Shown here: piece by piece, positions 1-14,849 of the stretch
How positions within the stretch are numbered: position 1 is the stretch's first letter
Layout of the letters: every line of letters starts with the position of its first letter
Assembly: GCA_964429815.1 (NCBI GenBank)
Contig: CAYSCM010000004.1
Span: 1 to 24,071, forward strand
Source of the DNA: an uncultured Candidatus Saccharibacteria bacterium
GTDB taxonomy: Bacteria; Patescibacteriota; Minisyncoccia; Phycocordibacterales; CAYSCM01
DNA length: 24,071 bases
Direction of reading: 5' to 3'
Translations under genes and position numbers: made by a program
The notes under the pieces: generated by a model
What the model was told of the DNA's origin: nothing
Databases searched by the model: none
What the model saw: only the letters and a program-made list of their open reading frames with translations

Positions 1-61
1 GACTCGAACCGAGGACCCACGCTTTACAAAAGCGTTGCTCTACCAACTGAGCTAAGGCGGC
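1..61 (-). tRNA. tRNA-Thr (anticodon TGT), 3' part truncated by window edge
   Basis: Reverse complement of 1-61 reads GCCGCCT-TA-GCTC-AGTTGGTA-GAGC-A-ACGCT-TTTGTAA-AGCGT-GGGTC-CTCGG-TTCGAGTC. This gives an acceptor 5' arm, D-arm, anticodon stem ACGCT/AGCGT with a 7-nt loop (U33 then TGT at 34-36), variable loop and T-arm GGTTCGAGTC. The 3' T-stem and acceptor lie outside the window. Confidence 0.8.
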
Positions 62-4964: not shown

Positions 4965-5103
4965 CTGTCCTCGTCTTACTCTGATACTTCACACGTTTCG
5001 ATTCGCGGTTTCGGCGACTCAGATACACACCGGCTCAAGGCCTTGGAGGCCCATTAATAACGCCGGGTTCTGTTTAAGAATAAAGCAAATTTGAAAGGGT
5101 TTG

Positions 5104-6489
5104 TCAATTCCTTGCCAAGACATCGATTTGGCTTTGGAAGTTGCTCGCGAGCTCCATCACTTCGTTGCCGTAAAAGGCGTACGCGGACTTCCCTGCGTTA
5201 GCCCACCCCGCAAGGTAGCGAAGTGCCGCGAGACGCTCCGCTTGTGGTGTTCCCGCAGAGGCTCCGTTATCCGAGAGAAGTGCCGCGGCTGCCATAAACG
5301 CATCCTCGTTGTCCCAGGGATTACTAGCCCCGCTGCCGCCGGTTAATTTTCTGATGCGATCACGACCCGCGTCATAAGCCCAGGGGCCGACCCACGTCTT
5401 ATTTGGATTGGGGCCGCACACGCCGGTCGTCGTATTGTAAAAACCGCCGAAACACGCCCAGGTGGAGGGGATAAACTGCGCCGGGCCCATGGCTCCGCCC
5501 CAGCCGTACCACGCACGCTTAGAAACCGGCATCTGATTTGGATCAAGGCCAAGCTGCGCCGTTATGGCGAGGAAGAGCGGCTTATCGCGGGTCGGGTTCA
5601 TATCGACGCTCCAGCTTCCCGTGCCGATGTTCTCGCCGAGATTGGTCTCTTCCGCCAAGACGCCCAGGAGAAACGCGGGGCGGACGCCGGTCTTCTGGTA
5701 GGCGAGATTCGCGAGGTCGAGCGCTTTGCCGAAGGGTATCGCCGCCGAATCGCGCAGCGTAAAGAGCTCGGAGCGTATTTGGGCGGCGCTTTTTTGGCTG
5801 CTTGTGAGAAGCGCTTGGTAGGCCGCCTCCTGACCTTTGGTTTGCGAGAGTATTTGCTTGCGCTCCTGCTCTTGCGCGACGATTTTCTGCTGTTCGAGCA
5901 CTTGGATCTGACGCAATTCCAGTTGCTCGGCTTTTTTATCCTCGAGCGCGGCTTTCTGGGTCTCGGTGAGATTCTTCGTGTCAGCGATATCCGAAAAAGA
6001 GGTATGGAGCGCTCCCTTGATGGAGTCGAAGCGGTCTATGTCGGTGAAAATATCGGAGAGCGTCCCGCTTCCCAAGAGAAGCTCCGCGAGTGAGTAGTCG
6101 TCTATCTGGCTTTGCTGCCGCACGAGCTGCGCGAGAGACTCTTTTTCGCGCCCGAGCTTATCGTTGAGACCGCCTATCGTCGCCTGCTTGCTTTCGATAT
6201 CGCCCTGAAGCTCTTCGATCGTAAGGTCGCGTGCTTTGATGGCGAGTTTTGCAGAGTCTATTTTGGCATCGAGAATGGCGACGTCGCGCTCGAGCGAAAC
6301 GCGCTCCTGCGATTTTGCGTCGAGAAGTTTTTGCTGATCGGCTATCTGCCCCTCAAGCTGCGCGAGCTGCTGCTCGAGCTGTGCGCGACGATTCTGTACA
6401 TCCACGCTTCCCGTTTCCTGCGCGAAGAGATGCGGCGGGAGGGCGAGAGCGCCCGCGAGCACCGCCACAGCAAGGAGCCGCTTGTGCAT
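5104..6489 (-). CDS. secreted lytic murein transglycosylase (MltB/SLT family 3-like C-terminal domain) with a long N-terminal coiled-coil region. Likely start is the ATG at 6487-6489 (MHKRLLAVAVLAGALA...); the track used a GTG two codons upstream
   Basis: Signal peptide, then about 250 aa rich in Q/E/L/K heptad-like repeats. C-terminal motifs AWYGWGGAMGPAQFIPSTW and YAFYGNE are typical of MltB-like transglycosylases. A TATACT box lies 7 nt upstream of the ATG. Confidence 0.75.
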   Translation of the reverse strand: MHKRLLAVAVLAGALALPPHLFAQETGSVDVQNRRAQLEQQLAQLEGQIADQQKLLDAKSQERVSLERDVAILDAKIDSAKLAIKARDLTIEELQGDIESKQATIGGLNDKLGREKESLAQLVRQQSQIDDYSLAELLLGSGTLSDIFTDIDRFDSIKGALHTSFSDIADTKNLTETQKAALEDKKAEQLELRQIQVLEQQKIVAQEQERKQILSQTKGQEAAYQALLTSSQKSAAQIRSELFTLRDSAAIPFGKALDLANLAYQKTGVRPAFLLGVLAEETNLGENIGTGSWSVDMNPTRDKPLFLAITAQLGLDPNQMPVSKRAWYGWGGAMGPAQFIPSTWACFGGFYNTTTGVCGPNPNKTWVGPWAYDAGRDRIRKLTGGSGASNPWDNEDAFMAAAALLSDNGASAGTPQAERLAALRYLAGWANAGKSAYAFYGNEVMELASNFQSQIDVLARN

Positions 6490-6563: not shown

Positions 6564-7233
6564 ATTTCTTCTGTTCTTTTGTCGGAGCTTCGGCGGCAGC
6601 TCCCTCTTCTCCTTCTTTGACTTCTTTTCCTTTTTTCTCCACTTCGATGGCAGATAGGTCAATGGGCTGCGGCTCCTCCTCCACTTCCTCTTTCACCTCG
6701 GCGGCAAGCACCACGACGTCGTCAGGATTACCGACGGCCTCGACACCCGCGGGAAGTTTAAGGTCTTTGATGTGGATTTTCGCGTCAAAGGTCGCGAGTG
6801 CAGAGATGTCGACCTCGATAACGTGCGGGAGATTTTGCGGCAGAGCGGAGATCTCAAGCTCATGGAGCACTTTCACAAGCGTGCCACCGAGGTCTTTCAC
6901 CGCACCGGCAACGCCCACGAACTCAAGCGGCACTTTGACCTCGAGCTTCTTTCCCTTCTCGATGACATAAAAATCGGCGTGCCTCGGCTCTCCCGTAAGG
7001 GTATCGAACTGCACGTCGTAAATGAGGGCGTCCTTGCTATCGCCGATGCCGGAGAGTGTGATGATGGTGGACTCACCCGCGCTTTTAAGCACCTTCTTGA
7101 AATCGCGGCGATTGACCGCGATCGGTGTCGAAGCATCCTGGTGACCATAGAAAACGGCCGGCATATCGCCTCCCGTGAGGGCGTTCGCCTTTTTGCCAAG
7201 CTCAGTGCGGGTTTTGACCTTTAGCTCAACCAT
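6562..7233 (-). CDS. rplY: 50S ribosomal protein L25 / general stress protein Ctc form with an acidic-lysine-rich C-terminal tail. Likely start is the ATG at 7231-7233 (MVELKVKTRTELGK...); the track start is a TTG at 7260
   Basis: L25/Ctc N-terminal domain (ELKVKTRTELGKKANALTGGDMPAVFYG) and beta-barrel C-domain. A TATACT box lies 8 nt upstream of ATG 7233. Confidence 0.88.
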   Translation of the reverse strand: MVELKVKTRTELGKKANALTGGDMPAVFYGHQDASTPIAVNRRDFKKVLKSAGESTIITLSGIGDSKDALIYDVQFDTLTGEPRHADFYVIEKGKKLEVKVPLEFVGVAGAVKDLGGTLVKVLHELEISALPQNLPHVIEVDISALATFDAKIHIKDLKLPAGVEAVGNPDDVVVLAAEVKEEVEEEPQPIDLSAIEVEKKGKEVKEGEEGAAAEAPTKEQKK

Positions 7234-7277
7234 GGGCTCGTAGTATACCCTGGAGGACAAAAAAGTCTAGGGTTCTT

Positions 7278-8144
7278 CTAGAGGCCGTTGAAGAGTTTGA
7301 GGCGCTCGGAGACGACTTTGGAGACGGCCTGGACTGCACCCTTCATAAATTTATAGGGAGCTATCTCTTCCGGGTCCTCAGAGAGTGAAAGTTGGATGCC
7401 TTTGCGGTATGCGATGCGGATTTCGGTGTTGATATGAACGACGGAAATGCCAGCCCTAATTGAAGCGACGAAGTCTTCGTTGCTCGTGCCGGAGCCGCCA
7501 TGGAGCACGAGCGGCACGCCTGCGGCGTCGCGTATCTCTTTAACGCGCTTGATGTTGAGCGCAGGTTCTTTCCCTGACTTAAGCATCCCGTGGAGATTCC
7601 CCACCGCGGGAGCAAGAAGATCAATGCCAGTTTCTTTGACGAACCGCGCAGCTTCCTCCGGCTTGGTGAGCGTCTCTTCGGTTATCTGCGCGCCTTCTGG
7701 TATGGCGTCGAGCAGTTTACTACTCGTGCCGATGAAGCCCAACTCCCCTTCAATGAGCATGCCAGGGCGATTTTTTCTTGCGTACTCAACGACCCTTCTG
7801 GTCATCGCGACGTTGCCGTCGAAGCTTTCTTTCGTGCCGTCGATGATTACGGCGTCGTAACCCGCATCAATGGCCTCAAAGGAGCGCTCTGCCGAGTAGG
7901 TATGGTCGGCATTTATGAAAATGGGGTAGTCGTGCTCCTCCCGCAGGCTCCGTACCATCGCGACGGCCTGCCGCGCCCCTATGAAGTCGCGCTCACCCTC
8001 GGAGGTGCCGACGATGACCGGGAGCTTAAGAGAGCGTGCGGCGTTAAAGATGGCGCAAAGCTGCTCGGAGTCGGAGATGTTGAAATGCCCCACCGCTATC
8101 TTATTTTTTTCGGCGTCCGCGATGAGCGTGCGCAAATCTTTCAT
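7278..8144 (-). CDS. fba: fructose-1,6-bisphosphate aldolase, class II
   Basis: Class II FBA motifs (VGHFNISDSEQL, PVIVGTSEG, HGGSGTSNEDF, LHGMLKSG). An extended -10 (TGTTATACT) sits 7 nt upstream of the ATG. Confidence 0.93.
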   Translation of the reverse strand: MKDLRTLIADAEKNKIAVGHFNISDSEQLCAIFNAARSLKLPVIVGTSEGERDFIGARQAVAMVRSLREEHDYPIFINADHTYSAERSFEAIDAGYDAVIIDGTKESFDGNVAMTRRVVEYARKNRPGMLIEGELGFIGTSSKLLDAIPEGAQITEETLTKPEEAARFVKETGIDLLAPAVGNLHGMLKSGKEPALNIKRVKEIRDAAGVPLVLHGGSGTSNEDFVASIRAGISVVHINTEIRIAYRKGIQLSLSEDPEEIAPYKFMKGAVQAVSKVVSERLKLFNGL

Positions 8145-8612: not shown

Positions 8613-8707
8613 CAATCCCTCCCAGGTATGAGGAAACTCTTGTGAAGGGTAGCAAAATCGCCTGGTGGGGACAAGCAGCTATGCGAGCTGCTATATACTT
8701 ATCTGAA

Positions 8708-9697
8708 ATGAGCAAGGTCGATTTTCTCTCCATCGGCGACATCACCACCGACGCATTCATTCGCATCAAGGACGCCTCGGTGCACTGCGACCTCAACCGA
8801 GAAAACTGCGAGCTCTGCCTTCGCTTCGGCGATAAAGTCCCCTACGAGGAGGTATACGTCGTTCCCGCCGTCGGCAACTCACCTAACGCCGCTGTCTCTG
8901 CCTCGCGACTCGGCCTTTCCTCTGGGCTCGTTACCAACATCGGCGACGACCAAAATGGCAAGGACTGCATGGCCCAGCTCCATAAGGATAGCGTCGACAC
9001 GTCTCTTGTCGCCGTTCACCCCGGGATGAAGACGAACTATCACTACGTACTGTGGTATGAAGAAGAGCGCACCATCCTCGTAAAGCACCAAGCGTATCCT
9101 TACATGCTTCCAAACCTTGGCTCTCCGAAATGGCTGTACGTGAGCTCGCTTGGTGGCAATTCTCTTGCGTACCAGCGTGAGATAGCGGCGTACGTCAAAG
9201 AGCACCCGGGCATTTCGCTCGCATTTCAACCTGGCACCTTCCAAATACAGGCCGGCTACGAAGCTCTGAAAGAGGTGTACGAGGTTTCAAAAATCTTTTT
9301 CTGCAACAAGGAGGAAGCGTGTCGCATACTTTCCGCCCAATCGAATGACATTAAGGAGCTACTCGAAGGAGTGCGGCGCTTAGGCCCCTCGGTGGTGTGC
9401 ATTACCGATGGCCCGAACGGCGCGTATGCCTACGACGGAGAGCAGTTTCTCTTTACGCCAATGTTCCCTGATCCGAAGCCGCCGCTCAATCGCACCGGCG
9501 CGGGAGACGCATTCGCCTCTACTTTTACAGTCGCCCTTGCCTTGGGCGAGCCTTTGGAAAAGGCTTTAGCCTGGGGGCCCGTGAATTCCGCCTACGTCGT
9601 CCAGGGCATCGGCGCGCAGGCAGGCCTCCTCACGCGAGCTGAGCTTGAAAAGCATCTCGCCGAAGCTCCGGAGGGTTACAAGGTAAAAAAAATATAG
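8708..9697 (+). CDS. PfkB-family carbohydrate/nucleoside kinase (ribokinase/adenosine kinase-like). Likely start is the ATG at 8708 (MSKVDFLSIGDITTD...); the track ORF begins at 8642
   Basis: N-terminal GD box (LSIGDITTDAF) and C-terminal PfkB signature (NRTGAGDAFASTF). A TATACT box at 8694-8699 lies 8 nt upstream of ATG 8708. Confidence 0.85.
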   Translation: MSKVDFLSIGDITTDAFIRIKDASVHCDLNRENCELCLRFGDKVPYEEVYVVPAVGNSPNAAVSASRLGLSSGLVTNIGDDQNGKDCMAQLHKDSVDTSLVAVHPGMKTNYHYVLWYEEERTILVKHQAYPYMLPNLGSPKWLYVSSLGGNSLAYQREIAAYVKEHPGISLAFQPGTFQIQAGYEALKEVYEVSKIFFCNKEEACRILSAQSNDIKELLEGVRRLGPSVVCITDGPNGAYAYDGEQFLFTPMFPDPKPPLNRTGAGDAFASTFTVALALGEPLEKALAWGPVNSAYVVQGIGAQAGLLTRAELEKHLAEAPEGYKVKKI

Positions 9698-10124: not shown

Positions 10125-10997
10125 TCACTTTTCGTTCGCGCGAGCGAGGAATTTCTGGTATTCCGCGGATTGCCGGACGAGTTTCATCGACGGCGGCCGC
10201 AGGGTGCCGGTTGAAGCTGAGGGCGGCACTGTTTTCTTTTCCGGAGTCGTCGAGAGAGGCTTCGCCGCAGGCTTCTTTGCCTGTACACCCCCCTTTGGGT
10301 CGCAGTAGAACGTGTGCGGCCCGATCTCGCTCTGTCTGGTGAGCTTTTCGAAGAAAGCTCTCCCTGCAGACGTGGTACCCACGTCGTCCGTGCGCTTGTA
10401 GTAGCGCGCGCAGGACAGACTCCCCGTCAGGAGGACGGCGTATTTTCCGGCAAGCACATCGCGAGCGATGCGCTCGCTGTCCGCCCACAACCACGCCGGA
10501 ATAGTCCATCGATTGAGGAACATTCCGGTGAATTGCCCTTGCTGCCAGACGACCCCGCAGATGGAATCTGCAAAGCCGGCCCTGGAACCGTCCATTTTCC
10601 GCTGGCGGGCAATTTCTCCGACGGATGCGCGAACATACGGCGGGTCGCGGAAGTTGCTCTCCCGCGAAATGAGCTCCGTCATGCAGGACAGGTCGTCCTG
10701 TTTGATGAAGGTTTCGGCTTTGTCCGGCACGACGACCGTGTCGGCTGCCATCACGACCCAGAGAGCGATGATGACCCCGACGCCGAGAACATTGAAGAGC
10801 TCCCGACGCAGGACATAGGAGAAGACGGGTGTAAACACGAACCGCACGAAGCTGCTCGCGAGCACCGTCACTCCCCAACCCAACCAGAATAGAAAGAACT
10901 CGATGAAGAGGACCACCGCATGGGCGGCCACTTCGTAGGCACCGACGGCGTACCCTGCGGCACGCTGAAGATGCCTCTTCGACCCACGCTTTCGCAT
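10125..10997 (-). CDS. membrane-anchored cell wall hydrolase, SleB/CwlJ (Hydrolase_2) family. True start is probably the internal ATG (MRKRGSKRHL...) preceded by GAGGAGG; the track's TTG start at 11054 lies inside the promoter -35. Start coordinate is +/-1
   Basis: One TM helix, then the motif SNFRDPPYVRASVGEIARQRKMDGSRAGFADSICGVVWQQGQFTGMF, which matches the Hydrolase_2 signature (...NRV...FP.TIC.VV.Q..QFS). Confidence 0.7.
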   Translation of the reverse strand: MRKRGSKRHLQRAAGYAVGAYEVAAHAVVLFIEFFLFWLGWGVTVLASSFVRFVFTPVFSYVLRRELFNVLGVGVIIALWVVMAADTVVVPDKAETFIKQDDLSCMTELISRESNFRDPPYVRASVGEIARQRKMDGSRAGFADSICGVVWQQGQFTGMFLNRWTIPAWLWADSERIARDVLAGKYAVLLTGSLSCARYYKRTDDVGTTSAGRAFFEKLTRQSEIGPHTFYCDPKGGVQAKKPAAKPLSTTPEKKTVPPSASTGTLRPPSMKLVRQSAEYQKFLARANEK

Positions 10998-10999
10998 GG

Positions 11000-11054
11000 A
11001 AGCCTCCTCAGGTTTTCGGGGGTAATTATATAACACAAAAAGCCATCTTGTCAA
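11000..11054 (-). promoter_or_regulatory. near-consensus sigma70 promoter for the hydrolase gene (TTGACA - 18 nt - TATAAT, then about 25-nt leader with GAGGAGG)
   Basis: Minus strand reads TTGACAAGATGGCTTTTTGTGTTATATAATTACCCCCGAAAACCTGAGGAGGCTTCCATG. Confidence 0.6.
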
Positions 11055-11074
11055 TCGTACAAAACGGCTTGGTC

Positions 11075-11302
11075 TCAGGATATTTTTCGAAACCGCGGGT
11101 GAAAAGTCCCGTCCGGGCTCTTAGCCTCGCCGAGAAACTCCTCAAGCGGCCGTATCCAAATCTTGCTTACCGGATTTTCATAAAGCGCCTCGTAGACGAC
11201 GAACTCTTTGAGGTCGTCTGCGTGCTTCCCCACCCCGATGAGCCGGTAGCGTCCGCCGGTTTTGACATGTTCGTATAGCTCTCCGGGTATGAGGGGCATC
11301 AT
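11075..11302 (-). CDS. DUF1653-family small protein. Start is the ATGATG at 11297-11302, overlapping the stop of the upstream micro-ORF
   Basis: Matches the DUF1653 pattern (GELYEHVKTGGRYRLIGVGKHADDLKEFVVYEALYENPVSKIWIRPLEEFL...PRF). The longer track ORF (start 11353) begins in the overlapping micro-ORF. Confidence 0.75.
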   Translation of the reverse strand: MMPLIPGELYEHVKTGGRYRLIGVGKHADDLKEFVVYEALYENPVSKIWIRPLEEFLGEAKSPDGTFHPRFRKIS

Positions 11303-11457
11303 TGTGAAAGCTCGTAGGTAAGCGTATCGACAGAGGTCCGTACCGCGCTCCATGAGGATTGCTGGGCAATGAGCGCCTTCCCTGAGAAATACAGTATGCC
11401 GACAAGCACTGAAACGAGAAGGAGCGTGCCGAGGCCGGAATTGACGTTGTGACGCAT
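11298..11457 (-). CDS. unannotated 52-aa single-TM micro-protein (MRHNVNSGLGTLLLVSVLVGILYFSGKALIAQQSSWSAVRTSVDTLTYELSQ), paralog of the adjacent peptide
   Basis: Found by manual translation (below the track's 60-aa cutoff). The ATG lies 3 nt after the stop of peptide 1, and its TGA overlaps the DUF1653 ATG (CAATGATG). It shares VGILYF..K.L.AQ..S.S....VD..L..L.S with peptide 1, with identical length. Confidence 0.55.
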
Positions 11458-11460
11458 ACG

Positions 11461-11619
11461 CTAATGAGAAAGTTTCTGGAGCATCGAATCGACGATAGAT
11501 GCCATGCGGCTAAATGATTCATCCTGCGCCCAGAGTTTATCGGAGACAAAATATAGGATACCGACAAAAACCGCCATCAGGAAGAGAAATATGAATAGCG
11601 GCGCGTGGTCGTGGTCCAT
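11461..11619 (-). CDS. unannotated 52-aa single-TM micro-protein (MDHDHAPLFIFLFLMAVFVGILYFVSDKLWAQDESFSRMASIVDSMLQKLSH)
   Basis: ATG at 11617-11619 overlaps the TAA stop of the transketolase C-terminal gene (TAATG). About 38% identical, ungapped, to the downstream 52-aa peptide. Confidence 0.55.
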   Translation of the reverse strand: MDHDHAPLFIFLFLMAVFVGILYFVSDKLWAQDESFSRMASIVDSMLQKLSH

Positions 11620-12608
11620 TATGGTTTTCGCTCACGTACCTTTTTTATTGCGGCTACGATGTGCGAGATGCCCATGCCGTAATGCTCGATAAGCTCCCTT
11701 GGTGTGCCGGACTGACCGAATCGGTCGCGGACCCCGATAAATTCAATGGGCACCGGAGTGTGCTGTGCGAGCAGTTCAGCGACCGCGCTTCCCATGCCGC
11801 CCGCGATCTGGTGCTCTTCGACGGTCACGACTGCGCCGGCTTCTTCCGCGACAGCACGAAGGAGTTCCCTGTCGAGGGGTTTTATCGTATGAAGGTTAAG
11901 AACGCTTGCTGAAATTTCCCCGTCGAGCTCCCTGGCGGCCATGAGCGCATTGTAGAGGAGCGGCCCTGAAGCGACGACGGCGACCTCCGGCTTCTTCCCT
12001 TTCCATACAAGCGAGGCTCTCCCGATCTCAAACGGGGATTCTTTCGTCGTCATGACGGGCGTTTTCTCGCGGGCAAAGCGCAGGTAGACCGGCCCGGGGT
12101 GCGCGGCTGCAGCGAGAGTCGCCTTCCTTCCCTCCTCTGCGTCGGCAGGGTAGATGACGGTCATGTTTGGCTGGACGCGCATGAGCGCGAGGTCCTCGAG
12201 CGCCTGGTGCGTCGCGCCGTCCGGGCCAACCGAGACGCCCGCGTGCATGCCGCCGATCTTCACGGGAACATTGTTGAGCGAGATGGTGGTGCGTATCTGC
12301 TCGTTGTTGCGTCCGGGAGAAAAGGTCGCGTAGGAGGTGATGAAGGGGATTTTACCGTAATTGGCGAGACCCGAGGCGATCGTCGCGAGGTTTTGCTCGG
12401 CGACGCCTATTTCGATGTAGCGTTTCGGGTACTTCTTTTGAAACTCAAGGGTGCGGGTCGACTCGACCAGGTCCGCGCACAGCGCCACCACACGCTCATC
12501 CTTCTCGGCCGCCTCGAGGAGACCCCTGCCGAAACCCTCCCGCGTCGCGGCCTGCTCGACGTCTTGGTCGAAGAGCTTTGGATTAAGTTTGGCGTCTCTG
12601 ATCATCAT
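11619..12608 (-). CDS. transketolase, C-terminal subunit (pyrimidine-binding and C-terminal domains) of a split transketolase
   Basis: Tkt Pyr domain motifs (IASGLANYGKIPFITSYATFSPGR, GVSVGPDGATHQALEDLALMR). Its start lies 1 nt after the tkt-N stop. Confidence 0.93.
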   Translation of the reverse strand: MMIRDAKLNPKLFDQDVEQAATREGFGRGLLEAAEKDERVVALCADLVESTRTLEFQKKYPKRYIEIGVAEQNLATIASGLANYGKIPFITSYATFSPGRNNEQIRTTISLNNVPVKIGGMHAGVSVGPDGATHQALEDLALMRVQPNMTVIYPADAEEGRKATLAAAAHPGPVYLRFAREKTPVMTTKESPFEIGRASLVWKGKKPEVAVVASGPLLYNALMAARELDGEISASVLNLHTIKPLDRELLRAVAEEAGAVVTVEEHQIAGGMGSAVAELLAQHTPVPIEFIGVRDRFGQSGTPRELIEHYGMGISHIVAAIKKVRERKP

Positions 12609-12609
12609 G

Positions 12610-13467
12610 TCATTGGTGCTCGCTTGTGAGTTTGCCGTTCAAGGTCCGAATGGCATCAATGAAGCGCTTCCCTTCCTCCGGCTTCGGGGGTTTTCCATGC
12701 CATTCGTAATTGAATTCGATCTCGGCCACACCCTTTCCGGGGATGGTGTGCGCGATGATGACGGTCGGCTTTTCATAAATAGCCTTCGCCTCTTCGGTAG
12801 CATCGACAAAGGCGCGTATATTGTGCCCGTCGATCTCAAGAACGTGCCAATTGAACGCTCGGTATTTGTCTGCGAGCGGCTCAAGCGGCATGACGTTCTC
12901 GGTCATGCCATCGATCTGGATATTGTTGCGGTCGATGACGGCCGTGAGGTTGTGAAGCTTGTTGTTGCCGGCGAACATGGCGCCCTCCCAGGTGTTGCCC
13001 GCATCGTGCTCGCCGTCGCTTAGAAGACAGTAGACGCGGAATTTCTCTCCGTCCATGCGCGCTCCGTAGGCGTAGCCGGCGGCTTGAGAGAGCCCGGAGC
13101 CCAAGGGCCCCGAGGTCGTCTCGATCGCCGGAAACCGCATGCGCTCGGGGTGTCCCTGGAGGCGCGAGCCGAATTTCCGGAGCGTCATGGCCTCATCGAG
13201 GGAGAGGTAGCCGGCGTGCGCCATGGTGGCGTAGCGTATCGGCGTTATGTGGCCGTTGCTTAATATGAGCCGGTCGCGCTCCGGCCAGTCGGGACGCTTC
13301 GGGTCGTGGTTGAGGATGTGGAAATAGAGAGCGGTGAATATGTCCGCCATACCCAAGGGCCCCGCGGTGTGGCCAGAACCGGACGCGACGAGCATGGAAA
13401 TGAGCGTCTCGCGGATCTCATTGGCCTTTTTTTGTAGCTCCTGTGCTTTTTCTTCGGTGATGGACAT
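12610..13467 (-). CDS. transketolase, N-terminal (TPP-binding) subunit
   Basis: TPP-binding motifs (SGHTAGPLGMADIFTALY, LLSDGEHDAGNTWEGAMFAG, GHPE). ATG lies 1 nt after the rpe TAG stop. Confidence 0.93.
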   Translation of the reverse strand: MSITEEKAQELQKKANEIRETLISMLVASGSGHTAGPLGMADIFTALYFHILNHDPKRPDWPERDRLILSNGHITPIRYATMAHAGYLSLDEAMTLRKFGSRLQGHPERMRFPAIETTSGPLGSGLSQAAGYAYGARMDGEKFRVYCLLSDGEHDAGNTWEGAMFAGNNKLHNLTAVIDRNNIQIDGMTENVMPLEPLADKYRAFNWHVLEIDGHNIRAFVDATEEAKAIYEKPTVIIAHTIPGKGVAEIEFNYEWHGKPPKPEEGKRFIDAIRTLNGKLTSEHQ

Positions 13468-13468
13468 G

Positions 13469-14116
13469 CTAAGCCGCCGTGAGGGTCGTTATCGCGTGCG
13501 CGATATCGGGGTCTTCAAAAATGTAACTGCCGGACACGAGGCGATTCGCGCCGGCCTCGACAAGGCGGTGCGCCGTTTTTGCATTCACCGCCCCGTCAAC
13601 GCTTATTGTAGCTTCCGGATGTGTCGCTCTCCAAGCGGCGACTTTTCGGAGTACGCGCTCGTCGAACGGCTCTCCTTGGTAGCCGATATGGGCGATGCCC
13701 ATGAATTGCACAACATCGATGAGCGGGAGGTACGGCTCGAGCGTGGCGCTTTCGGTATCGTTGAGGATAGCAAGCCCGAGCTCAAGCTTCGGGTAGGTAG
13801 CCCGCACGTACGCAAGGGTATTTTTAAGCTCTCTGGTCCTCTCGATGTGAAAGATGAGGCGCCGTGCGCCCGCCGCTATCCAATCGTGCGCTGCCCTCCC
13901 AGGATCGGCGACCATGAGGTCGACCTCGAATGGCATGTCAAGCGCGATGGCAGGAAAATCCCCATGAGCGCCCCGAAAGGGCCAGCTCTTCGGGGCGACG
14001 TAGAGCCCGTCCATGATATCGAGCTGGACGAAGCTAACGTAGCGCCTGACGCGCGCGATTTTCTCGCGAAGATCCGCGAGGCTCTTGGGCATGATGGCGG
14101 GAACAACTTCCGCCAT
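13469..14116 (-). CDS. rpe: ribulose-phosphate 3-epimerase. Likely start is the ATG at 14114-16 (MAEVVPAIMPKS...), 2 nt after the pilin stop; the track start at 14146 would overlap the pilin gene by 28 nt
   Basis: RPE motifs (VQLDIMDGLYVAP, DLMVADP, HIERT, VQFMGIAHIGYQGEPF, ISVDGAVN). Confidence 0.9.
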   Translation of the reverse strand: MAEVVPAIMPKSLADLREKIARVRRYVSFVQLDIMDGLYVAPKSWPFRGAHGDFPAIALDMPFEVDLMVADPGRAAHDWIAAGARRLIFHIERTRELKNTLAYVRATYPKLELGLAILNDTESATLEPYLPLIDVVQFMGIAHIGYQGEPFDERVLRKVAAWRATHPEATISVDGAVNAKTAHRLVEAGANRLVSGSYIFEDPDIAHAITTLTAA

Positions 14117-14118
14117 GG

Positions 14119-14658
14119 CTACCAACAGTTTGGATAACTTGACCACGCCGCCGGGAAGGCCGTATCCGCCCCGACCCTACAGATGGTGGAAGCTGACCCT
14201 ATCGGGGTAAAAACTTCAAACTGTATCTTGATGCCGTAGCCTTTTACGTTGCCGTTGGAGTCGAGCTCGTAGGCGTACTGGTAGTCGGCCTGACCTGGCT
14301 GGCACGTGCCTGCTGTACATAGCGGGTCGTGCGGCGCGGCGGCCGACGTGTAGTAGGTGGATAAACCTGCACCCGAGCAGGTAACGAGGTTCGAAAGGGT
14401 ATCCGGCGCGAGAGAACCCTTAAGCGACGAGCACGAGACGTTCCGTATGGTCGGGTAGGCATGGTTTGCCGTGAAGTAGTCTTCAAGCGCATTTTGCACC
14501 GAGTGTATCTCTTGGGCACGTCTCGCGTCCCTCGCCTTCTGACGAGATGACGCGAGCGACGTGAGCACGATGCTCCCCAGGAGCCCAATGATGGCGACGA
14601 CCACTAAAAGCTCTATAAGGGTGAACCCTCTGCCTGCGACAAGACGAGGAAACGTCAT
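14119..14658 (-). CDS. type IV pilin/pseudopilin-like protein (class III prepilin signal)
   Basis: N-terminus MTFPRLVAGRG|FTLIELLVVVAIIGLLGSIVL: a G/F cleavage-methylation motif plus a hydrophobic helix with E5. Cys-containing C-terminal domain. Confidence 0.85.
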   Translation of the reverse strand: MTFPRLVAGRGFTLIELLVVVAIIGLLGSIVLTSLASSRQKARDARRAQEIHSVQNALEDYFTANHAYPTIRNVSCSSLKGSLAPDTLSNLVTCSGAGLSTYYTSAAAPHDPLCTAGTCQPGQADYQYAYELDSNGNVKGYGIKIQFEVFTPIGSASTICRVGADTAFPAAWSSYPNCW

Positions 14659-14660
14659 AC

Positions 14661-14849
14661 TCAGCCCCAGAGGGTGTACGCGGTCGCAAGGAGCACGAGG
14701 ATGAGGACGACGATAAGGACCGTCTGCGCTCCCTTCGCGTCCTTGGCAAGACCAAGTTTAATGACGAGCTTGCTTACCCAGCCCAACCGCTCACCCGATT
14801 GCGCCATGCGGTGGCGGAAATCGTTCTCTTCGTAAAATTCTACGGCCAT
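14661..14849 (-). CDS. small membrane protein (62 aa, C-terminal TM helix) encoded between rpiB and the pilin
   Basis: Its TGA stop is 2 nt before the pilin ATG. C-terminal VLIVVLILVLLATAYTLWG is a clear TM segment. Confidence 0.5.
   Translation of the reverse strand: MAVEFYEENDFRHRMAQSGERLGWVSKLVIKLGLAKDAKGAQTVLIVVLILVLLATAYTLWG

Follow-up and report, generated by a model that had tools for sequence, protein, structure and literature searches.

According to three reports (PMC12648545, PMC10723866, PMC11539335), the small membrane proteins that have been studied act as regulators of larger transport, signalling and stress proteins, and numerous small hydrophobic proteins whose function is unknown are described as already known. 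AcrZ, MgtS and KdpF are about 50 amino acids (aa) long, carry a single transmembrane (TM) helix, are often encoded in or beside operons and are overlooked by annotation. Two proteins resembling them in these respects, here termed pep1 and pep2, are encoded in tandem on the minus strand of the window, the stretch of 24,071 nucleotides (nt) that forms positions 1 to 24,071 of contig CAYSCM010000004.1 (assembly GCA_964429815.1, an uncultured Candidatus Saccharibacteria bacterium). Their genes lie between tktC, which encodes the C-terminal half of a split transketolase, and a gene for a DUF1653 protein. No sequence relationship to AcrZ, MgtS or KdpF was detected (no Pfam or NCBIfam match) and, unlike those proteins, pep1 and pep2 have no adjacent membrane-protein partner, their neighbours being soluble sugar-phosphate enzymes and DUF1653. 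With the small proteins surveyed by Sberro et al. (bioRxiv 10.1101/494179) they have in common that a small open reading frame (ORF) with a predicted TM helix is conserved among metagenomic lineages; the survey was one of human microbiomes, whereas the pep1/pep2 family comes from environmental Patescibacteria. A search of the literature on small membrane proteins associated with transketolase in Patescibacteria found nothing relevant. Bacillus subtilis YneF (UPF0154, PF03672) is a small protein with an N-terminal TM helix encoded near tkt; membership of pep1 and pep2 in UPF0154 was rejected, as none of 22 scanned sequences matched UPF0154 or another Pfam family. Scans of the 52-aa family against Pfam-A, NCBIfam and PHROG likewise gave no match at E <= 0.01 other than sporadic noise hits of single members, which stayed well short of the cut-offs.

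The best explanation of the locus, to which a probability of about 0.8 is given, is that pep1 and pep2 are genuine bitopic proteins of 52 aa that arose as tandem paralogs, belong to a tiny family found in three lineages of Paceibacteria, and are probably an offshoot of a wider type of small membrane protein, termed A2 below. The features concerned are the following, with hydropathy given on the Kyte-Doolittle (KD) scale and flanking genes identified by Pfam matches.

11619..12608, minus strand: tktC, C-terminal half of a split transketolase (Pfam Transket_pyr 5e-42, Transketolase_C 3e-25)
11461..11619, minus strand: pep1, an ORF of 52 aa, stop codon counted in the range, sequence MDHDHAPLFIFLFLMAVFVGILYFVSDKLWAQDESFSRMASIVDSMLQKLSH
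11545..11595, minus strand: predicted TM helix of pep1, residues 9-25, with A16xxxG20 and the shared VGILYF (mean KD 2.88 over 17 residues)
11467..11541, minus strand: amphipathic heptad helix of pep1, residues 27-51 (a/d positions L29, Q32, F36, M39, V43, M46, L50)
11299..11457, minus strand: pep2, an ORF of 52 aa, stop codon counted in the range, sequence MRHNVNSGLGTLLLVSVLVGILYFSGKALIAQQSSWSAVRTSVDTLTYELSQ
11386..11436, minus strand: predicted TM helix of pep2, residues 8-24, with S16xxxG20 (mean KD 2.28 over 17 residues)
11305..11379, minus strand: amphipathic heptad helix of pep2, residues 27-51 (a/d positions L29, Q32, W36, V39, V43, L46, L50)
11075..11302, minus strand: DUF1653 gene, 75 aa, last of the coupled string (PF07866 5.9e-13)

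Both 52-aa ORFs and their spacing had been proposed in an earlier sequence-only reading of the window, and the sequence and ORF listing confirmed them. The pep1 ATG and the tktC TAA have one base (A) in common (TAATG, CCATAATGG), a 3-nt spacer (CGT) leads from the pep1 TAG to the pep2 ATG, and the first ATG of DUF1653 is overlapped by the pep2 TGA (ATGA, CAATGATG), so that the stop/start overlaps from tktC to DUF1653 are +1, -3 and +4 nt. The hydrophobic helix claimed for each peptide was borne out by the KD means listed above. The same reading had called the genes unannotated, which does not hold: the exact sequences of pep1 and pep2 are already present in NCBI and Logan records as predicted, nameless proteins, and gene calls on the Logan contigs L001 and L002, identical to the window DNA here, include both. 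These two contigs were the only identical DNA found and offered no polymorphism to analyse.

The case that pep1 and pep2 are genuine protein-coding genes is solid, and three independent lines of sequence evidence, namely codon usage, paralog divergence and orthologs, support it. A codon-usage log-odds score, for which 14 long window genes served as the training set, ranked the peptide frame as the best of six for both pep1 (0.21) and pep2 (0.33). Control scores were 0.33 +/- 0.21 for in-frame segments of known genes and -0.42 +/- 0.34 for out-of-frame segments, with 2.4% of the latter scoring above pep1 and 0.7% above pep2. Comparison of the two peptides by BLASTP returned 20/52 identities (38%) without gaps (E 1e-10), in agreement with the figure of about 38% given earlier. 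At the DNA level, identity was 77/159 (48%) in register and 19-33% in registers shifted by 1-6 nt; by codon position 1/2/3 it was 22/36/18 of 52, and 8 of the 20 residues identical between the peptides use different codons. Such a pattern would be expected if the duplication were old and selection had kept the protein sequences. A 129-aa ORF on the same strand in another frame (11178..11567) was considered and rejected, as its codon usage is poor and no counterpart occurs in the two related loci described next. An Rfam scan of the pep1/pep2 region for structured RNA gave no family match.

Orthologs were obtained from an exhaustive HMMER profile search of 1.84 billion representative proteins, which yielded three further proteins, P0027, P0029 and P0030, each exactly 52 aa long; profile E-values within the 52-aa family ranged from 2e-13 to 3.5e-10. 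A word-index search of 5.8 billion clusters, run with a two-peptide and then a five-sequence profile, retrieved nothing beyond the family's own sequences with either. Exhaustive profile searching can thus recover pep1/pep2 orthologs that are overlooked by word-indexed searches. The five members form an alignment, A4, with pairwise identities of 25-60%. On the contig L163 the end of tktC, P0029 (pep1-like), P0027 (pep2-like) and DUF1653 are adjacent in that order, joined by an ATGA overlap, a direct abutment and a second ATGA overlap. Locus L164 contains tktC, a single pep2-like gene (P0030), DUF1653, a Hydrolase_2 gene, a convergent PfkB kinase gene and the class II aldolase gene FBA, as in the window. 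The overlap of the last peptide's TGA with the DUF1653 ATG (ATGA) is common to all three lineages, with the conserved junction CTTTCACAATGATGCC. The tktC genes of the three organisms are only 74-78% identical, which marks the window, L163 and L164 as distinct lineages. Scans anchored on tktC in genomes and metagenomes found no close relatives of the window (best tktC identity 73%), and hidden Markov models (HMMs) built from pep1 and pep2 or from all five members found nothing significant among the six-frame ORFs of 160 related loci.

Substitutions among these orthologs preserve the reading frame. Between pep2 and P0027, 31/52 residues (60%) are identical, with identities of 34/43/23 by codon position, a nonsynonymous rate (dN) of 0.31, a synonymous rate (dS) of 1.71 and a ratio (omega) of 0.18; pep2 and P0030 are 48% identical. 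After a one-residue shift, pep1 and P0029 share 28/50 residues, with codon-position identities of 32/39/19; half of the identical residues (14/28) use different codons, and dS is saturated. Position-2 identity was far above position-3 identity in every ortholog pair of the family. For comparison, omega between the window and L163 was 0.12 in the C-terminal part of tktC and 0.044 in DUF1653. Judged by these substitution patterns, the reading frames of the 52-aa family are under purifying selection. The proposal that the ORFs are real genes is therefore upheld by intact 52-aa orthologs in the same slot of two other organisms.

The architecture of the proteins is also shared across the family. 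All five A4 members have a 17-residue hydrophobic core (mean KD 2.2-2.9) ending in invariant G20..Y23-F24, and a small-xxx-Gly pattern (S/A/T16...G20), a classic helix-packing motif of TM segments, is present in 4/5. Downstream of the core, hydrophobic heptad a/d positions 29, 32 (Q/E), 36, 39, 43, 46 and 50 are kept in 5/5 sequences; the hydrophobic moment of the pep1 C-terminal helix is 0.37. An AlphaFold2 (AF2) model of pep2 from the five-sequence alignment consists of one continuous helix over residues 5-51 (mean predicted local distance difference test score 81). From these features we infer that pep1 and pep2 are bitopic, each folding as one long helix in which a TM segment (about residues 9-25) with a small-xxx-Gly face runs into an amphipathic or coiled-coil-capable tail (about residues 27-51). 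Proteins built in this way usually function as oligomers. The combination of that TM face with a heptad tail makes an oligomer the probable working form in prediction, so that oligomerisation is likely, and pep1-pep2 hetero-oligomers after the duplication are plausible. The N-tails are all short and differ by type: pep1-type tails are acidic, His-rich (HDH) and free of K/R, while pep2-type tails carry a VN motif and 0-1 K/R. The positive-inside rule predicts an N-out/C-in topology for pep1. The His-rich tails read DHDH/EHDH in pep1 type (residues 2-6, 11602..11616 in the window; 235-255 in L163) and RHN/HQH in pep2 type, and 'HDH(A/G)P' of the pep1 type is kept between lineages. Such a tail could serve in metal binding or pH sensing and would face outwards should pep1 be N-out.

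The pep1 and pep2 genes form the 3' part of a tightly packed operon with the order rpiB, 62-aa ORF, pilin-like gene, rpe, tktN, tktC, pep1, pep2 and DUF1653. The further features of the region are listed below, identified by Pfam match where no other basis is given.

14661..14849, minus strand: 62-aa ORF between rpiB and the pilin-like gene, also among the gene calls of L001 and L002
14119..14658, minus strand: pilin-like gene (N_methyl, PF07963) with N-terminal methylation motif GFTLIELLVVVAIIG
13469..14146, minus strand: rpe, ribulose-phosphate 3-epimerase
12610..13467, minus strand: tktN, Transketolase_N
11025..11070, minus strand: terminator-like hairpin (11070..11040) and promoter (11054..11025; consensus scan 12/12)
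10125..10997, minus strand: Hydrolase_2, a SleB-like cell-wall hydrolase of 290 aa (PF07486 2.3e-6), with its own GAGGAGG Shine-Dalgarno motif before the ATG at 10997
8642..9697, plus strand: PfkB kinase, convergent
7278..8144, minus strand: FBA, class II aldolase

No Shine-Dalgarno (SD) motif precedes pep1, pep2 or DUF1653 in the window, L163 or L164, and AGGAGG-type motifs are found before Hydrolase_2 (GAGGAGG/AGGAGG) and some other unit-initial genes. No promoter-like site was found by consensus scan within or flanking 11299-11619 on either strand. Termination-reinitiation would be the simplest route for translation of pep1, pep2 and DUF1653. The earlier suggestion that the peptides are co-translated is supported in part, in that the spacing and the missing SD motifs agree with it; the coupling itself is inferred, and the same packing extends through the whole operon. 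Directly after DUF1653, a perfect sigma-70-type promoter (TTGACA-18-TATAAT) overlaps a hairpin with a 12-bp stem, and by inspection TTGACA...TATAAT stands at the same place in L163 (~790-830) and L164 (~1115-1150). On this sequence evidence the tkt-peptide-DUF1653 unit ends, and that of the hydrolase begins, at the hairpin/promoter, and Hydrolase_2 is probably outside the transcription unit of pep1 and pep2. Elsewhere in the window, many genes have no SD-like motif of any kind, and a TATACT box ends 6-8 nt before the start codon, with no SD, at FBA (~8150; start 8144), L25 (~7240; start 7233) and a 461-aa gene (~6495; start 6489), all on the minus strand, and likewise at ~3310 of L164. The closeness of TATACT to the start together with the lack of SD suggests that leaderless mRNAs are common in the source organism.

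Two other genes of the operon were recorded as side observations. The 62-aa ORF is a third small membrane-protein gene; its hydrophobic helix is C-terminal (…AQTVLIVVLILVLLATAYTLWG), its product looks tail-anchored from sequence, and no Pfam match to it is on record. The type IV pilin-like gene stands inside this sugar-phosphate operon between rpiB and rpe, and tblastn matches to it (E <= 1e-5, some to the N-terminal part only) were found in 27/162 loci (2 same-organism contigs among them). At the edge of the window, a partial tRNA gene is cut (1..61, minus strand; Rfam RF00005, 44 bits).

For a broader view of the family, GTDB species genomes and JGI metagenomes were scanned with tktC as anchor, which provided the 160 related loci (tktC identity 60-73%), all of them Patescibacteria (Paceibacteria: Adlerbacteria, Kaiserbacteria and relatives). 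A single small one-TM ORF occupies the corresponding position in many of them. In 17 of about 160 loci (about 10%) the rpe-tkt operon contains a member of A2, a family of single-TM proteins of 39-65 aa with the signature 'k(V/I)N..(G/S)..F.a.F', a TM helix and 'G.NPI' (iterated HMM E 1e-12 to 1e-22). In the large database A2 comprises 24 clusters (e.g. P0003-P0026), of which the few that are named go under 'hypothetical protein' and none has a Pfam domain. The small-protein genes retrieved by sequence lie in the rpe-tkt operon at varying positions: P0012 directly after tktC, P0016 between rpe and tktN, and P0010 after an extra 415-aa gene that follows tktC. A weaker A2 match, P0024, is located near FBA on a cut contig. 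A rough neighbour-joining tree of tktC placed all loci with A2 in one major clade, together with the window, L164 and the L029 group.

Members of A2 thus resemble pep1 and pep2 in size, in having one TM helix after a short N-tail, in their location in the rpe-tkt operon and in tktC clade; their slot is also alike, in that an A2 gene usually comes straight after tktC and is the final one ahead of the convergent PfkB. A2 genes are single-copy, whereas the 52-aa genes here are tandem-duplicated and followed by DUF1653, and where A2 has a 'G.NPI' turn the 52-aa family has an unbroken heptad helix (AF2). Alignment of A4 with A2 by hhalign gave a probability of 10.5% with two sequences and 51% with five (P 1.5e-4, 47 columns). 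The score of 22.6, compared with 10.2 for the reversed alignment, was reached by 0/200 permutations that keep the N-tail, TM and C-tail blocks (mean 10.7, standard deviation 2.6, maximum 22.1). The A2 motif 'k(V/I)N' before the TM helix has a counterpart in the pep2 type (NVNSG, HVNSG, SVNSS), the NVN of pep2 matching 'kVN' in the HMM alignment, and none in the pep1 type (DHDHAP). Shared ancestry of the 52-aa family and A2 is, on these profile comparisons, somewhat favoured.

Other genes occupy the same position in related loci. Single-TM ORFs of 51-60 aa abut or overlap the tktC stop in L029 (6993-7154), L043 (6990-7145) and L120 (4990-5148), and a second such group occurs in L047 (6990-7172) and L121 (2687-2869); the two groups, an example of which is MMKFFKNKLFII…DVIDTLE, look mutually unrelated. 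Homology of the 52-aa family to the L029/L043/L120 type was rejected (hhalign probability 0.2%). L033 has another unrelated-looking small TM ORF after tktC. In L083, the genome locus nearest in tktC, and in L008, the gene after tktC (4992..5447 and 6998..7447, respectively) encodes a multi-TM protein of about 150 aa, followed directly in L083 by an ABC-transporter ATPase-like gene. Small membrane-protein genes seem to be drawn to, or kept in, the post-tktC slot. DUF1653 follows tktC directly, with no small TM ORF, in L073 (~1827), L119 (~4990), L124 (~5110) and L141 (~5092), and these four peptide-free loci indicate that DUF1653 itself is recurrently attached to the transketolase operon in Paceibacteria.

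Several other readings of the locus were weighed. Chance ORFs in a non-coding spacer, such as a duplicated RNA element, with similarity derived from a DNA repeat, would be in keeping with the shortness of the ORFs, the self matches alone from the word-index search and the 48% DNA identity of the copies. This reading is effectively refuted and retains almost no probability: codon position 2 is far better kept than position 3 in paralogs and orthologs alike, omega for pep2 is ~0.18, three lineages keep the exact length and frame, the peptide frames have the best codon usage of six, and there is neither an Rfam match nor conservation of any other frame. Type I toxins typically have this size and one hydrophobic helix, so that toxic hydrophobic peptides, whether type I toxin-like or similar to bacteriocins or leader-less peptides, come to mind. 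However, pep1 and pep2 are chained into a housekeeping operon with no promoter or SD of their own, no terminator-bounded antisense unit was seen there, the syntenic slot is kept across lineages under purifying selection, and the sequences have no secretion leader or double-glycine motif; a toxin is accordingly held to be extremely improbable.

The remaining alternatives assign the peptides to one of the two genes downstream. Two similar small TM proteins recall holin/antiholin pairs, which here would gate export or activation of the Hydrolase_2 product. Consistent with this, Hydrolase_2 comes after the peptides and DUF1653 in the window, L164 and probably L163, an A2-type peptide precedes a Hydrolase_2 homolog in L006, and the hydrolase shows a weak match to an endolysin family of PHROG (E 6.6e-4). 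Yet a promoter and a strong SD stand in front of the hydrolase itself, which probably make it a separate unit and lower the weight of this reading, and DUF1653 and the hairpin intervene, an arrangement kept in L163 and L164. Furthermore, most A2 loci are without a hydrolase and end at the convergent PfkB, the hydrolase of L166 lies on the other strand, conservation of a partner concerns the rpe-tkt operon rather than the hydrolase, and pep1 and pep2 match no holin family in PHROG or Pfam, leaving holin function very unlikely. Alternatively, the peptides and DUF1653 could form a module in which the peptides anchor the soluble DUF1653 protein to the membrane, the link to transketolase being one of shared transcription only. 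The ATGA overlap and conserved junction in all three lineages, the strong purifying selection on DUF1653 (omega 0.044) and a heptad tail that could bind a partner speak for such a module; DUF1653 standing straight after tktC without a peptide in L073, L119, L124 and L141, and A2 peptides without DUF1653 in nearly all loci, speak against it, and it is considered unlikely. A PDB sequence search with DUF1653 gave no match, and the literature on DUF1653 offered one incidental mention and nothing on function.

The preferred reading, of genuine bitopic paralogs related to A2, has points against it as well. The 52-aa family occurs in only three lineages, with five sequences among 5.8 billion clusters, and with so few sequences the selection estimates come from two or three pairwise comparisons in which dS is saturated. 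The operon as a whole (rpe, tktN and tktC too) is tightly packed and lacks SD motifs, and several genes look leaderless; coupling is therefore not specific to pep1 and pep2. The topology signal of the pep2 type is ambiguous and perhaps opposite to that of pep1, as it is in L164, and a possible opposite orientation argues against a parallel coiled-coil heterodimer. Expression, membrane insertion and oligomerisation of the peptides are all predictions. With respect to A2, its HMM gave pep2 an E of 1.6 among 32,605 ORFs, in an alignment that covers the 'VN' motif, and left pep1 unmatched; the post-TM 'G.NPI' motif is missing, all five A4 sequences being devoid of NP, and TM composition can inflate profile scores. 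Finally, operon membership in genomes of the candidate phyla radiation (CPR) is weak evidence of a functional link.

Under the preferred reading of pep1 and pep2 as bitopic paralogs, the peptides would be translated by termination-reinitiation, and their output would follow that of transketolase. A chain of 52 residues is too short to be targeted co-translationally, so insertion probably takes place after release, in the manner of YidC, and the acidic, K/R-free N-tail of pep1 would favour its N-out/C-in orientation. Homo-oligomers or pep1-pep2 hetero-oligomers would most likely be the working form. By analogy with known small membrane proteins, the most likely role, and this is speculation, is that of a small accessory or tethering subunit of a larger partner. 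The DUF1653 protein would be the top candidate, followed, just as speculatively, by the pentose-phosphate enzymes of the operon and then by an unlinked membrane complex. A bolder version is a long shot: that this clade uses a membrane-tethered sugar-phosphate metabolon, in which small proteins hold or regulate the pentose-phosphate enzymes or DUF1653 at the membrane. In this version the tether would be made in fixed proportion with ribulose-phosphate epimerase and transketolase, in ultra-small episymbiotic bacteria. It would have been duplicated to pep1 and pep2 in the lineage of the window, with opposite charge bias, possibly as an antiparallel or heteromeric pair.

Overall, pep1 and pep2 are a fairly ordinary kind of small protein. 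Their analysis amounts to a computational validation of two genes of fewer than 60 aa in an uncultivated CPR/Patescibacteria genome, and it defines a new family of five sequences in three lineages, tentatively tied to a wider, unnamed and clade-restricted family of Paceibacteria. If the association with the operon is one of co-transcription only, the result is two more conserved hypothetical small membrane proteins, of value for annotation and unsurprising. A functional linkage, should it exist, would suggest that pentose-phosphate enzymes are regulated by, or associated with, the membrane in organisms of minimal metabolism. The feature worth following is the recurrence of small membrane proteins linked to the transketolase operon in one CPR clade.

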